64,000 nt of DNA, from positions 2,204-66,203 of the forward strand of contig JBAQEZ010000001.1 of assembly GCA_049287005.1 (NCBI GenBank), read 5' to 3'. Below the pieces are notes generated by a model. That model was not told where the DNA came from. It did no database searches and saw only the letters and a program-made list of their open reading frames with translations. Below, in pieces: positions 35,070 through 56,695 of the stretch. Origin of the DNA: Candidatus Moraniibacteriota bacterium (GTDB lineage: Bacteria; Patescibacteriota; Minisyncoccia; Moranbacterales; UBA1568). A program made the translations under genes and the position numbers. Within the stretch, counting starts at the first letter, position 1; every line of letters starts with the position of its first letter.

Positions 35070-35112
35070 CTTTACAACCGCAATCCTCTGTGGTATAAAA
35101 ACGGTAACAGTA

Positions 35113-35131
35113 AACGGTTCGCCGTTTTTTG
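35113..35131 (+). terminator. Intrinsic terminator after thrS
   Basis: AACGG-TTCG-CCGTT hairpin followed by TTTTTT. Confidence 0.65.
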
Positions 35132-35190
35132 TTAGGGGGGATTCGGGAACGTCCGGGTCCACAATAAAAAGTCTTGCAGGAGGTTTAACA

Positions 35191-35607
35191 ATGAATATGG
35201 CTTGCAGCTTCACACGTCACGGCCACCAAAACCCTATCATTCAGCCGACACACTACGCTCAGTCAGCGGAGGAACAGCTGATTCAATCAGAGGAACAGTC
35301 AACCGATGACCGTTACCCCAGTCCACAGGAGTTTGAGAGACTGTTGCAGGAGCACCTCAACGGCAAGCTCCGCAAGAACCGGGCTAACAAGGCCAAAAAG
35401 GCCGCTGGCGTACGTCGAGCCAAAATATTGGCTCAGATAGAGGGTCTGAAGCGTTCCGTGCGACACCGTCCGGACCAATGCGAATGCGTCCACACGCGCT
35501 CCGCGAGCTGCCAGTTCAACACACACGCCAACAAAGGACGGCTGAACCGGCGGGTGCTGATCACTCGTCCTTCCGGACAAGCAGCCCTCTGCTCTGGCTG
35601 CTGCTGA
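35191..35607 (+). CDS. Small basic Cys-rich hypothetical protein (C-terminus ...ALCSGCC) in a GC-rich islet
   Basis: Strong AGGAGG SD 7 nt upstream of the ATG; 139 aa; followed by its own terminator. Local GC content is noticeably higher than the flanks. Confidence 0.45.
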   Translation: MNMACSFTRHGHQNPIIQPTHYAQSAEEQLIQSEEQSTDDRYPSPQEFERLLQEHLNGKLRKNRANKAKKAAGVRRAKILAQIEGLKRSVRHRPDQCECVHTRSASCQFNTHANKGRLNRRVLITRPSGQAALCSGCC

Positions 35608-35639
35608 TACTCCGGGCGGCAACGCCACCCATCAAGAAT

Positions 35640-35677
35640 GCCCGAGCTCCTCTGGAGTCTCGGGCGCTTATTTTTTA
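35640..35677 (+). terminator. Intrinsic terminator after the Cys-rich small ORF
   Basis: GCCCGAG...CTCGGGC 7-bp stem followed by GCTTATTTTTTA. Confidence 0.65.
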
Positions 35678-49839: not shown

Positions 49840-49868
49840 TTGACAACATCGAATTTACAGTGTATAAT
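49840..49868 (+). promoter_or_regulatory. Perfect-consensus sigma70 promoter TTGACA-17-TATAAT
   Basis: TTGACA at 49840-49845, a 17-nt spacer, TATAAT at 49863-49868; followed by the hairpin CTGGTTGG...CCAACCAG (49871-49897). Confidence 0.7.
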
Positions 49869-49922
49869 GGCTGGTTGGAAAGTTCGTTACCAACCAGCAA
49901 CCACCAGCGAGGAGATTATAGC

Positions 49923-50126
49923 ATGCAGACACAAACCCTGGAACGGCACGCGCTTGTAGCCTTCGTTTTTCTGGTCGCAATGATTTACACCATTGCCTCG
50001 GCAATCAGTGCCACCGGTGGCGGCGATACCTTCGCCAGCGGTCATTGGGCCAACTGGCTTTTCACGAAGGTTCTCGCGGCACACGATTTTTTTTGGTGCT
50101 GCGTAGCCCCAGGGCTGCCTGGCTAG
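49923..50126 (+). CDS. Small hydrophobic peptide ORF (67 aa), first ORF of the mini-operon
   Basis: AGGAG SD 8 nt upstream of the ATG; predicted TM segment ALVAFVFLVAMIYTIASAI; ends in FFWCCVAPGLPG. Confidence 0.4.
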   Translation: MQTQTLERHALVAFVFLVAMIYTIASAISATGGGDTFASGHWANWLFTKVLAAHDFFWCCVAPGLPG

Positions 50127-50149
50127 ATTCCGCCACAAGGGAGAAAATA

Positions 50150-50305
50150 ATGGGGGAAAATGATCCGTCGGGAGCCGACCCCCGAAAGAAGGCTCGGCAC
50201 AACCAGATCCAGGAAAGCCCGAGGGTCACCATGCATCTCCTCTGGGGGTTTCTTATAGGGTCTGCAGTGGCGGCCGCATTCATAGAATGGGTCACTGCCC
50301 TATAG
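50150..50305 (+). CDS. Small peptide ORF (51 aa) with a C-terminal TM segment, second ORF of the mini-operon
   Basis: AAGGGAG SD 7 nt upstream of the ATG; LLWGFLIGSAVAAAFIEWV TM segment. Confidence 0.35.
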   Translation: MGENDPSGADPRKKARHNQIQESPRVTMHLLWGFLIGSAVAAAFIEWVTAL

Positions 50306-50327
50306 AGTCTCACTATCAACCGATCAA

Positions 50328-50357
50328 CCTGACTTCGCACCACGCGGTCAGGTTTTT
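50328..50357 (+). terminator. Intrinsic terminator closing the small '+'-strand unit
   Basis: CCTGAC...GTCAGG hairpin followed by TTTTTCATTTT. Confidence 0.7.
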
Positions 50358-50373
50358 CATTTTCCTCGATTCA

Positions 50374-53768: not shown

Positions 53769-55160
53769 TTATATGAGTTTTTCTTGAAAATAATGCTTGA
53801 GCTCCTCAATCTTCACCCGCACCTGCTCCATGGTATCGCGGTCGCGAACCGTGACGGCACTGTCCTCGAGAGAATCGAAGTCGACGGTGACACAATACGG
53901 CGTTCCGATTTCATCCTGGCGACGATAGCGCTTACCGACATTCCCATTGTCATCGAACTCAACACGAAAATTTTTCTTCAATTCCATAAATATGCCGCGC
54001 GCTTTCTCCACCAGCTCAGGCTTGTTTTTCATGAGTGGGAACACCGCTATCTGTACCGGTGCCAGTCTCTTCGGGAATTTAAGCACGATACGCAGGTCAT
54101 TTTCCCCGACTGTTTCTTCGGTATAGGCATCCGTCATGACCGCAAGGAAAGTGCGCTCCACACCGACGGATGCTTCCACGATCCACGGAGTGTATTTTTC
54201 TCCCGTCTGCGGATCACGGTAGGAGAGATCCACGCCCGAAAACTTGGTATGCTGCGTCAAATCATAGTCGCTGCGATTGTGTACGCCTTCCAGTTCCTTG
54301 AATCCGAATGGGAAACGGTACTCGATATCCCAAGCCGCCTTCGCGTAAAAAACCAAATTTTCGTGTTGATGCCACCGTAAGTTTTCTTTTTTGATGCCGA
54401 GGTCGACATAATATTGGAAACGCTTCTGCCGCCATTCTTCATAGGCTGCCGCTGCCTCTGTTGGATGCACGAAATACTGCATCTCCATCTGTTCGAATTC
54501 ACGCTTGCGGAAAATGAACTGCCGAGCCGTAATCTCATTGCGGAAAGCCTTGCCAATCTGAGCGATACCGAAGGGTACCTTCACGCGACTCGAGTCCAAC
54601 ACATTTTTGAAGTTGACATAGATCCCCTGGCACGTCTCGCCACGCAAATACGTCGGATTCTCGTTCCAGTCACCCGCGAAATTGCCGAGATTCGACTGTA
54701 CCAAGAGATTGAAATTCTTGGCCTCGGTAAAATCCTTCTTACCGCACTTGGGACAGATAACTTTTTCCCTGTTCTCTGCAAAAAGTGTATTGATTTCTGT
54801 TTCCGTCATTTTTTCGTCGGCAAACACCCCTCTCTCTTCGAGCAAATGATCGACGCGTACTCTCGTGTGGCACTGGCGGCACTCTGCCAGAGGATCAGAA
54901 AACCCTCCCACATGACCCGAGGCTTCCCATACTTTCGGATGCATGAAAATGGCGCTATCGAGGCCGACGATATTGTCGTGATCCCGCACCATAGCCGTCC
55001 ACCACGCCTCACGGATGTTTTTGGCCAGCTCTACCCCATACGGTCCGAAGTCATAGACCGCCGCAAAGCCGCCGTAAATTTCTGACGAAGGGAACACGAA
55101 CCCGCGTCGTTTGCAGAGCGACACTATTTTTTCCATAAGATCATTTTTTTCTTCGGACAT
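53769..55160 (-). CDS. glyQS: Glycyl-tRNA synthetase, alpha2 dimeric type
   Basis: Class II motifs and eukaryote/archaeal-type GlyRS architecture; 463 aa. Confidence 0.93.
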   Translation of the reverse strand: MSEEKNDLMEKIVSLCKRRGFVFPSSEIYGGFAAVYDFGPYGVELAKNIREAWWTAMVRDHDNIVGLDSAIFMHPKVWEASGHVGGFSDPLAECRQCHTRVRVDHLLEERGVFADEKMTETEINTLFAENREKVICPKCGKKDFTEAKNFNLLVQSNLGNFAGDWNENPTYLRGETCQGIYVNFKNVLDSSRVKVPFGIAQIGKAFRNEITARQFIFRKREFEQMEMQYFVHPTEAAAAYEEWRQKRFQYYVDLGIKKENLRWHQHENLVFYAKAAWDIEYRFPFGFKELEGVHNRSDYDLTQHTKFSGVDLSYRDPQTGEKYTPWIVEASVGVERTFLAVMTDAYTEETVGENDLRIVLKFPKRLAPVQIAVFPLMKNKPELVEKARGIFMELKKNFRVEFDDNGNVGKRYRRQDEIGTPYCVTVDFDSLEDSAVTVRDRDTMEQVRVKIEELKHYFQEKLI

Positions 55161-55195
55161 ATGAGAAGGTAAGGAAATTACATTTTTTTGCTTTA

Positions 55196-55224
55196 TTGAC
55201 AGCGCTTGGTACCCGTAGTATAAC
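55196..55224 (+). promoter_or_regulatory. Near-consensus sigma70 promoter TTGACA-17-TATAAC
   Basis: TTGACA at 55196-55201, a 17-nt spacer, TATAAC at 55219-55224; divergent from glyQS. Confidence 0.6.
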
Positions 55225-55318
55225 TCGAAACAGTACCTTCAACAATCGGAGCGATGAGGGATTATAGCCCCTTTCCGGTTTTTCTTCAACCCGCCGCCTT
55301 ATTGGAGACAAGCATATC

Positions 55319-55462
55319 ATGGAAAGGATCCTCGCATTCGTCGTTGAAAACATCTTCATCGTTGTCATCCCGGCGGCGTTCATCAGCGCCGCTATCGCCC
55401 ACCATTGGCCAGTCATGGGCCACCATCGCCAGCCTTCTCACCGCGATGAGGAAGCCTGCTGA
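55319..55462 (+). CDS. 47-aa hydrophobic peptide ORF (MERILAFVVENIFIVVIPAAFISAAIAHHWPVMGHHRQPSHRDEEAC)
   Basis: Lies between the promoter and the terminator; GGAGA 10 nt upstream; one TM helix plus a His-rich tail. It is below the 60-aa cutoff of the ORF track. Confidence 0.35.
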   Translation: MERILAFVVENIFIVVIPAAFISAAIAHHWPVMGHHRQPSHRDEEAC

Positions 55463-55494
55463 GTCCCTGAAACAGGGAGAAGCTCCCAACCTCC

Positions 55495-55528
55495 GACGCT
55501 GTCACGCCCGACAGCGTCGTCTTTTTTT
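55495..55528 (+). terminator. Intrinsic terminator closing the second small '+'-strand unit
   Basis: GACGCTGTC-ACGCCC-GACAGCGTC perfect 9-bp stem followed by GTCTTTTTTT. Confidence 0.75.
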
Positions 55529-55546
55529 GTCCGTGATAACATGCGG

Positions 55547-56695
55547 TTATGCACGCAAACGCTCCATAAGACGCATATAGAAACGCAGGTTATGCAGCGA
55601 AGCGAGGCGCAGAGCCAACGGATCCCCCACTTTGAAGAGATGCTTCAGATACGCCCGCGTATGATTCCGACACAACTCACAATCACACGTCGGATCCACG
55701 GGCGCAAAATCTTCCTTGAACTGCTCGTTATTGATATTGATAGTTTTATAGAAAGAATCGAATTGTGAATTTTGAATTTTGATTGAATTTTGAGGTTCTA
55801 ATTGAGATTGTTCGTTCCAAATGAACAAACGGCCGTGCCGTCCCTCGCGCGTCGGTATTACGCAGTCGAACATATCCCACCCGACCCGATGACACCGGAC
55901 GATGTCGTCCGGCGTCCCGATGCCGAGAGCGAATCGCGCGCTCTCCTCCGGAAGAAGCGAGGCGGTGTAACGGACAATATCCTCCAAAAAATTTCCCTCA
56001 TCGTCGATGTGCCGGCCACCGAAGCCATAGCCGTCGAAACCGATTGCCACCAATCCTTCCGCGCAGTGTCTGCGTTGCTCCCGGAACATCCCGCCCTGCA
56101 CCACGCCGAAAAGCAGCGGACGCATCGCTTCTCTCAACCCGCGGGACGCGACCTGTTGTTCATATTCTCTTCGCGAACGTTCTGCCCAACGCAAAGTCCG
56201 TTCCACCGCTTCGGCGACTTCCGTTTCCGGAGCGCTATTGGGCCGCGGGTCATCCAGAACGACCATCATGTCCACACCGAGATCGAACTGGATCTGTATG
56301 GCGCGCTCCGGCGTCAACAGATGTTTCGACCCATCGAGTACCGAACGGAATTCCGCGCCCTCCTCCGTAATCCGCCCCAATTCCGGATTCCTATGAATGA
56401 GCGAGTACACCTGATAGCCGCCCGAATCGGAAAGGATCGGCTTATCCCAATGCATGAACGCATGGACGCCGCCGGCCCGTTTCACGAGATTTTCTCCCGG
56501 CTGCAAAAGAAGATGATAGGTATTGACGACTAATGCACCAATGCCAGCTTTTCCCAAATCCCCGCTCGATACTCCTCGTACCGCCGCGCGGGTGGCATCC
56601 GGCATGAAAAAGGGAGTGCACATACTCCCTGATTTCGTGGCCAGCACGCCCGTACGCCGCCCGCCGATATTTTGTTGTTGTTTCCACGCGGACAT
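55547..56695 (-). CDS. tgt: Queuine tRNA-ribosyltransferase
   Basis: Catalytic region LSDSGGYQV and a C-terminal Zn site CDCELCRNH...H. Confidence 0.93.
   Translation of the reverse strand: MSAWKQQQNIGGRRTGVLATKSGSMCTPFFMPDATRAAVRGVSSGDLGKAGIGALVVNTYHLLLQPGENLVKRAGGVHAFMHWDKPILSDSGGYQVYSLIHRNPELGRITEEGAEFRSVLDGSKHLLTPERAIQIQFDLGVDMMVVLDDPRPNSAPETEVAEAVERTLRWAERSRREYEQQVASRGLREAMRPLLFGVVQGGMFREQRRHCAEGLVAIGFDGYGFGGRHIDDEGNFLEDIVRYTASLLPEESARFALGIGTPDDIVRCHRVGWDMFDCVIPTREGRHGRLFIWNEQSQLEPQNSIKIQNSQFDSFYKTININNEQFKEDFAPVDPTCDCELCRNHTRAYLKHLFKVGDPLALRLASLHNLRFYMRLMERLRA

Follow-up and report, generated by a model that had tools for sequence, protein, structure and literature searches.

A candidate orphan membrane-peptide gene in a variable slot beside glyS of a Moranbacterium

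Introduction

What is a near-consensus promoter, followed by a short reading frame and a terminator, doing next to the start codon of a glycyl-tRNA synthetase gene? An earlier note, made from the letters of the sequence, had described this arrangement and a second one next to metG. Since both stand divergently beside an aminoacyl-tRNA synthetase (aaRS) gene, it had suggested a family of small regulatory or toxic peptides or of sRNAs. The DNA belongs to a MAG of Candidatus Moraniibacteriota (CPR/Patescibacteria), whose GenBank proteins are matched exactly by GlyRS, Tgt, MetRS and both small ORFs of this stretch. CPR bacteria have many unexplained small proteins, and the unit could be a regulatory RNA, a toxin gene, a remnant or one more of these proteins. 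Below, the window is the whole 64-kb stretch of DNA that was analysed, and positions without a locus handle are positions in it.

The unit and its neighbours

The unit sits in a gap of 386 nt between glyS (53769..55160) and tgt, for tRNA-guanine transglycosylase (55547..56695). Both genes are on the - strand, glyS divergent from the unit and tgt convergent with it. The synthetase gene had been called glyQS; the divergent aaRS is there, and the two-subunit name does not fit its product, a single-chain class II glycine--tRNA ligase of 463 aa.

The promoter of the unit is of the sigma-70 type, with TTGACA (55196-55201), 17 nt and TATAAC (55219-55224), so that the element spans 55196..55224 of the + strand and matches the consensus at 11 of 12 positions, as the earlier reading had it. 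From a consensus scan, using the usual distance of 7 nt from the -10 box (as for glyS below), transcription is predicted to start at ~55232. Scanning both strands of the window with the pattern TTGACA-N16-18-TATAAT turned up five sites with a match of 11/12 or better, where first-order Markov simulations led us to expect 0.61 +/- 0.75, an enrichment of ~8-fold. Therefore, the promoter is unlikely to have arisen by chance. The best two + strand matches in the window are those of this unit and of the unit beside metG.

At its other end, the unit is closed by an intrinsic terminator on the + strand (55494..55528), whose sequence is CGACGCTGTC-ACGCCC-GACAGCGTCG then TCTTTTTTT. The terminator had been recognised before, with a stem of 9 bp; we count a perfect stem of 10 bp, 7 of them GC, which encloses a loop of 6 nt and is followed by a T7 run. 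The terminator is predicted to function for the + strand only, there being no U-run after the hairpin on the - strand.

No intrinsic terminator belonging to tgt lies between it and glyS; read on the - strand (55470-55546), the 10-bp hairpin lacks a U-run. Given this lack of a terminator, tgt transcripts probably read antisense through the small ORF toward glyS.

The leader and the facing promoters

The predicted 5′ leader is ~87 nt long (55232..55318, + strand) and carries the Shine-Dalgarno (SD) sequence GGAG at 55304-55307; its distance of 11 nt to the ATG is on the long side and suboptimal. A weak hairpin plus U-run, AGGG...CCCT TTCCGGTTTTT, had been reported as an element of this leader. 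The hairpin is present (55256-55283), with 5 pairs and an 8-nt loop. This stretch is, in fact, the reverse complement of the glyS-strand promoter 55289..55261, and it is better explained by that promoter on the other strand than as part of the leader. The predicted glyS promoter, on the - strand at 55261..55289, consists of TTGAAG (55289-55284), 17 nt and TATAAT (55266-55261), a 10/12 match, and TTGAAA/G-17-TAnnnT is found at the equivalent place of the glyS strand in four related loci, L001, L084, L085 and L086.

Is there any other sign that the leader works as an RNA element? The fold of the unit's leader is not significant (z = -0.26), and among the six orthologous leaders no fold is shared or significant (z from -2.67 to +1.21). 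In the minimum free energy (MFE) fold, likewise non-significant, both the SD and the AUG region are paired. A search of the whole window against Rfam at the gathering score returned two tRNAs only, and the region 55100-55600, searched on either strand with E up to 10, gave chance-level matches only. The absence of an Rfam match and of a conserved leader fold argues against a structured RNA. Accordingly, a T-box or known sRNA identity was rejected, as no Rfam match was found beyond the tRNAs and the chance matches, and so was a structured leader or attenuator, given that the six orthologous leader folds are neither significant nor alike. As for control by a leader peptide or attenuator, there is no regulated gene downstream on the same strand; after the terminator comes the 3′ end of the convergent tgt.

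The two promoters in the gap have a peculiar geometry. The start site of glyS is predicted at ~55254, and the predicted 5′ UTR of glyS, from 55254 to 55161, crosses the promoter of the unit. Thus, the genes are divergent yet their promoters are predicted to stand face-to-face, each within the other's 5′ UTR, with start sites at ~55232 and ~55254 and 5′ ends that overlap by ~22 nt. In this geometry, the strong promoter of the unit would be expected, when it fires, to interfere with initiation at glyS. Facing pairs are predicted in L001, L084, L085 and L086 as well, and the overlaps, the window included, are of 9-23 nt. Face-to-face promoters as a universal design were rejected: the promoters are back-to-back in L089, as are those at metG in L090 and L091.

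Facing promoters of divergent genes, with transcriptional interference, are described for the Ecl18kI restriction-modification system (PMC2760811) and for scbA/scbR (PMC3134472), the latter with an overlap of 53 bp. In these systems, as predicted for the unit and glyS, the genes diverge, the promoters face each other, the transcripts overlap at their 5′ ends and either promoter is situated within the region transcribed from the other. The overlap of scbA/scbR is longer than the ~22 nt found here, where the start sites are predictions. Also, unlike in the two known systems, there is no known regulator or operator at the unit and glyS, and the arrangement varies among relatives.

The 47-residue peptide

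The ORF of the unit, on the + strand at 55319-55462, encodes 47 aa (MERILAFVVENIFIVVIPAAFISAAIAHHWPVMGHHRQPSHRDEEAC). It had been presumed to lie below annotation cutoffs; it was, however, called by PGAP, and it is in GenBank as the hypothetical protein WAV46_00270 (MFZ2187057.1). The description of the product as one transmembrane (TM) helix plus a His-rich tail is borne out: the Kyte-Doolittle (KD) mean is 2.54 over 19 residues from residue 4, which fits one TM helix, and this N-terminal helix (~residues 3-27) is followed by the tail HHWPVMGHHRQPSHRDEEAC, which is rich in His and ends in the single Cys of the peptide.

We searched widely for relatives. A word-indexed search of 5.8 billion proteins found the peptide itself only, while phmmer, run exhaustively on 1.84 billion representatives, gave the peptide and one hydrophobic low-complexity match in a protein of 4685 aa; among ~15 billion proteins there is no detectable homolog. 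Searches with tblastn gave nothing in 80 glyS loci and no paralog in the 64-kb window. Pfam, NCBIfam and PADLOC, at E up to 1, gave no match, nor did the PDB sequences. By these searches, the peptide is a lineage-specific orphan and a singleton, and since there is no homolog, purifying selection on it cannot be shown.

Codon usage, scored as a log-likelihood trained on 36 genes of the window, discriminates weakly. The ORF scores 0.125 per codon, which places it within the range of real genes, at the 15th percentile among 47-codon windows of these, and also within the top 4% of spurious ORFs; an antisense ORF of 67 aa scores similarly (0.104).

The glyS slot in related Moranbacteria

Search of the lineage for the peptide had been proposed as a check, and it returned no homolog; what is kept among relatives is the slot, its promoter and its terminator. 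The related loci were obtained from a genome-collection scan with GlyRS and from exact-sequence contig look-ups, with GlyRS homologs 83-88% identical. About 10-11 of them are informative, and the region upstream of glyS was read on the strand equivalent to the + strand of the window. TTGACA-17-TATAnT stands at the place equivalent to the unit promoter in nine loci (L001, L081, L083, L084, L085, L086, L089, L091 and L092), ~5-30 nt from the glyS start codon, except in L089, where the distance is ~100 nt. L088 and L090 carry a TTGACA box too, but the scan scored no promoter in L090 and, in L088, only an alternative with a 9/12 match. GlyRS is 84-88% identical across these loci. The cassette loci have a promoter region, a leader, an SD, at least one ORF and a GC-rich terminator, and are always divergent from glyS; a comparable GC-rich terminator closes the cassette in each related locus read. 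To the left of the slot, most loci have tgt; L001 and L084 have a cation ATPase there.

The cargo differs from locus to locus. L001 and L084 have TM peptides of 26 aa (MTIILACFLGLCCFYRWRVLKDRQKS and MLYILTGFIGICFLYRRRVLKDRRKS), and L081, L083 and L091 a 64-aa protein with a TM helix and CPCG...HCPCG. L086 has a protein of 69 aa that combines a TM helix with a zinc ribbon, L085 and L092 have two tandem TM plus zinc-ribbon proteins of 68-95 aa, and L088 has a zinc-ribbon protein together with a 99-aa TM protein. L089 has one soluble protein of ~125 aa, and L090 five genes of 114-154 aa, with a homolog of the L089 protein encoded by at least one of them. In L087 there is no cassette, and tgt and glyS are 81 nt apart. 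Since L087 does without a cassette, glyS does not need the unit, and any effect of the unit on glyS would be dispensable.

Between promoter and terminator, the sequences of the relatives cannot be aligned; an SD and an ORF are what they have in common. On the sequences compared, it is the slot with its promoter and terminator that is conserved, and not the peptide or an RNA. The earlier note had named the lack of conservation of either peptide or RNA structure in related genomes as an outcome that would count against its proposal. Neither was found to be conserved, and the unit therefore falls short on both counts; position, promoter and terminator are kept.

Several features of single loci are recorded here. 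The five consecutive genes of L090 (114-154 aa) occupy the tgt-glyS slot at L090:7846-9978, - strand, and have no Pfam match; the 133-aa protein among them aligns by eye with the ~125-aa slot protein of L089 (L089:9400-9800, - strand). This L089 protein was missed by the gene caller, which called an antisense ORF of 127 aa instead. In L088 (L088:2400-2470, - strand), a GC-rich palindrome, GAGCGCGGATTTACTTTGCGCTC, separates the TTGACA box from a TATATT box; it could be a small insertion that breaks the slot promoter or changes its spacing. In two more distant loci, with GlyRS 75-76% identical, the region upstream of glyS (L002:3700-3850 and L003:3420-3500, - strand) contains a common motif, ...CAGGACGAG...CCCGCGGTTCCACCTG, with a T-run after it. 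Motif and T-run resemble the 3′ part of an sRNA gene; at the gathering score, Rfam gave no match here, and at E up to 1 only a chance-level match to the L002 region.

The slot proteins

Seven slot proteins align as a family with a TM helix, invariant Cys positions and the consensus PCPxC...YxCxxCG. A profile search with this family retrieved seven proteins only, and the sole named one is a Moranbacteria hypothetical protein. Does the peptide of the window belong with them? It shares with the family the locus, the orientation, the promoter and the terminator. The two Cys knuckles after the TM helix (PCPxC ... YxCxxCG) are absent from it, and it scores 1.7 bits against the family HMM, a score equalled or bettered by 245 of 1000 block shuffles. 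By eye, the tail, W-PVMGHH-RQPS-HRDEEA-C-stop, is like the W/basic/(Q)P linker found ahead of the relatives' first Cys knuckle, which suggests a truncated version, and W-x-RQP[ST]-x-C is common to the peptide and L081. Homology to the zinc-ribbon family is unsupported, the HMM score being no better than those of block shuffles.

Compared with the TM plus zinc-ribbon proteins of the slot (such as GW815_02635 and P0126-P0132), then, the peptide occupies the same slot, divergent from glyS and framed by the same kind of promoter and terminator, and has a single N-terminal TM helix and a W/basic linker as they do. Without PCPxC...YxCxxCG and with a single Cys, it is a positional analogue and not a demonstrable homologue. 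The FeoB-associated Cys-rich membrane protein (PF12669) is also short and, like the peptide, has its TM helix at the N-terminus and a tail that may bind metal. To PF12669 the L081 relative has a sub-threshold match, 13.8 bits against a cut-off of 27, and the 47-aa peptide none; there is no feoB nearby. Because many positional counterparts carry Cys4 zinc-ribbon tails, it is mildly plausible that the His-rich tail binds metal.

L001 and L084 allow a closer look at how the cargo changes. These loci are 95.8% identical over 2.16 kb. Within the 26-aa ORF, 16 of 39 nt differ in codons 2-14, the TM part (binomial P ~1e-13), that is, a divergence of 41% in the TM-coding segment vs 3.6% around it. The frame and the hydrophobicity are kept (TIILACFLGLCCF in L001 vs LYILTGFIGICFL in L084), and there is hardly any difference in the leader or in the C-terminal codons. 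Since the change in the TM codons keeps frame and hydrophobicity, we infer that the slot ORFs of the relatives are translated. The hypervariable stretch lies at L001:574-612 (- strand) and at the equivalent stretch of L084, and its localised variability would come from diversifying selection or recombination.

The unit beside metG

The promoter of the second unit, TTGACA-17-TATAAT at 49840-49868 on the + strand, is a 12/12 match and stands 9 nt from the metG start. It is followed on the same strand by a TM ORF of 67 aa (49923-50126, WAV46_00240) and by a second ORF, of 51 aa (50150-50305), with a charged N-terminus, a C-terminal TM helix and the SD GGGAG 7 nt upstream. The 51-aa ORF is absent from a collection of 15 billion proteins and is therefore probably unannotated. 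With its two ORFs, the unit looks bicistronic. It has a hairpin too, and a terminator at ~50327-50362 (+ strand), and spans 49840..50362 as a whole.

The likeness of architecture noted before holds: in both units, a near-consensus promoter a few nt from an aaRS start codon is followed by a leader of ~50-90 nt, then by at least one small TM ORF and finally by a strong terminator. Are the two units related beyond this? The alignment of the units that had been suggested as a check showed promoter hexamers that are alike, and peptides and remaining DNA that are not related. With BLASTP, the 47-aa and 67-aa peptides gave E = 0.53 in a single comparison and E = 3.1; neither peptide of the window matches the other's relatives, and the units have no DNA similarity beyond the promoter hexamers. 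Homology of the glyS-side and metG-side peptides was rejected on these non-significant BLASTP results. With no Rfam match either, the proposed family of peptides or sRNAs beside aaRS genes is not upheld.

The glyS and metG slots are both kept in related Moranbacteria. The promoter of the metG unit is kept in L089, L090 and L091 (11-12/12). The small TM proteins on the metG side match each other between L089 and L090 (E = 5e-6), and their match to the 67-aa protein of the window is marginal (E = 0.017 in a seven-sequence database). The window holds at least three confirmed aaRS genes (metG, thrS and glyS), and the adjacency of the units to aaRS genes is, as far as these loci indicate, a reflection of conserved lineage synteny.

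On the metG strand, an extended -10 element, TGCTATAAT (49913-49923, - strand), overlaps the start codon of the 67-aa ORF. The metG start site is predicted at ~49908, with an overlap of ~33 nt with the 5′ end of the unit, which makes a second predicted face-to-face pair. This pair is not kept in L090 and L091.

A third promoter-ORF-terminator unit lies directly after thrS and is co-directional with it (35071-35676, + strand). It has TTTACA-17-TATAAA, the SD AGGAGG, an ORF for a soluble protein of ~145 aa with a Cys-rich C-terminus (...LCSGCC) and a strong terminator, and is unrelated to the two mini-units.

Interpretation

We propose, with moderate confidence, that the unit is a monocistronic accessory gene, probably strongly transcribed, for a fast-evolving single-pass membrane peptide, and that interference with glyS is a possible side effect. 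In this model, the sigma-70-type promoter beside the glyS start codon would drive an mRNA of ~300 nt, which would encode the 47-aa single-pass membrane peptide and end at the strong terminator before the convergent tgt. The gene would fill a lineage-specific variable slot that reaches, in Moranbacteria, from tgt (or another left neighbour) to glyS. The slot would keep its promoter and terminator while its cargo turns over quickly, and the 47-aa peptide would be this genome's own orphan version. When the strong promoter of the unit fires, it would interfere with initiation at glyS, and the two 5′ ends would be complementary. We have found no evidence of a new regulatory principle at the unit. 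The kind of gene, that of a small orphan membrane protein, is already known, and the gene itself is annotated as hypothetical.

Could the ORF be a decaying or neutral remnant, truncated or arisen de novo, with a role through transcription only? Such a role might be interference with glyS initiation, collision with tgt read-through or 5′-5′ antisense pairing with the glyS mRNA. The orphan status of the peptide, its lack of a match to the slot family, the ambiguous codon score and the poor SD spacing would all fit, and the conserved parts are precisely the promoter and the terminator. In addition, tgt lacks a terminator and the - strand is probably read antisense through the unit. The tail, like the linker before the first CxxC of the relatives, stops at the first Cys, which suggests the loss of a zinc ribbon; this resemblance, however, is statistically unsupported. 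Against a remnant, each other slot cassette bears a plausible SD-preceded ORF, and the 26-aa ORFs of L001 and L084 are TM-only versions kept in frame under rapid change. L087, which has no cassette, also speaks against it. We consider a remnant unlikely.

It is tempting to go further than the accessory gene that we prefer. The cassettes on the promoter side of glyS and metG could be sites of very strong transcription for tiny membrane peptides that diversify far faster than their surroundings. Such peptides could have toxin-like, surface or host-interaction roles and be under diversifying selection, and the facing promoters might couple their expression inversely to transcription of the aaRS genes. 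This is a speculation to which we give rather little credence.

Another proposal would be a type I toxin-like membrane peptide, held in check at the RNA level by the 5′ end of the glyS mRNA or by antisense read-through from tgt. Type I toxins (Hok, Ldr, TisB, Ibs, ShoB, Fst, TxpA) are hydrophobic single-TM peptides of <60 aa with a polar or charged tail, and they have a long 5′ UTR, a narrow distribution and rapid evolution. At 47 aa and with a KD of 2.54, the peptide falls within the size and hydrophobicity of such toxins (under ~60 aa, hydrophobic), and it resembles them in its single TM helix, charged tail, long 5′ UTR and narrow distribution. The very fast turnover of the slot peptides, the MFE fold that would sequester SD and AUG, and the predicted overlap of ~22 nt between the 5′ ends of the unit and glyS mRNAs would also suit a toxin. 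The comparison breaks down elsewhere. There is no match to a toxin family in Pfam, NCBIfam or PADLOC, and no antitoxin sRNA gene: the gap contains no dedicated antisense gene with its own promoter or terminator, its sole promoter-like site on the - strand being that of glyS, and no terminator on that strand. Toxin genes do not usually have a constitutive promoter so close to consensus, the 64-kb window has no other copy, and the leader fold is neither significant nor conserved. Moreover, many occupants of the slot are larger zinc-ribbon or soluble proteins. A toxin is, for these reasons, a distinctly improbable reading.

Finally, it is very unlikely that the unit encodes a non-coding sRNA, whether one that acts in trans or a structured RNA of the housekeeping kind, and that the ORF is incidental. 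A strong promoter and a strong terminator do bracket ~300 nt, and the whole transcript folds with z = -3.6. Much of that stability, however, comes from the 10-bp stem of the terminator and from base pairs inside the ORF, and the leader by itself has z = -0.26; Rfam has no match even at E up to 10, and the relatives, not alignable between promoter and terminator, share an SD and an ORF and not a sequence or structure.

Significance

What looked like a regulatory promoter-peptide-terminator unit is thus most simply read as an orphan small membrane-protein gene in a variable slot, and what looked like an attenuator in its leader, as the promoter of the neighbouring gene read on the wrong strand. 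Two leads could, if confirmed, offer a handle on small-protein evolution or on the control of aaRS expression in unculturable organisms: slot peptides that diverge so strongly, and so locally, when the genomes around them are nearly identical, and the predicted face-to-face pairing of the strongest promoters of the window with aaRS promoters.
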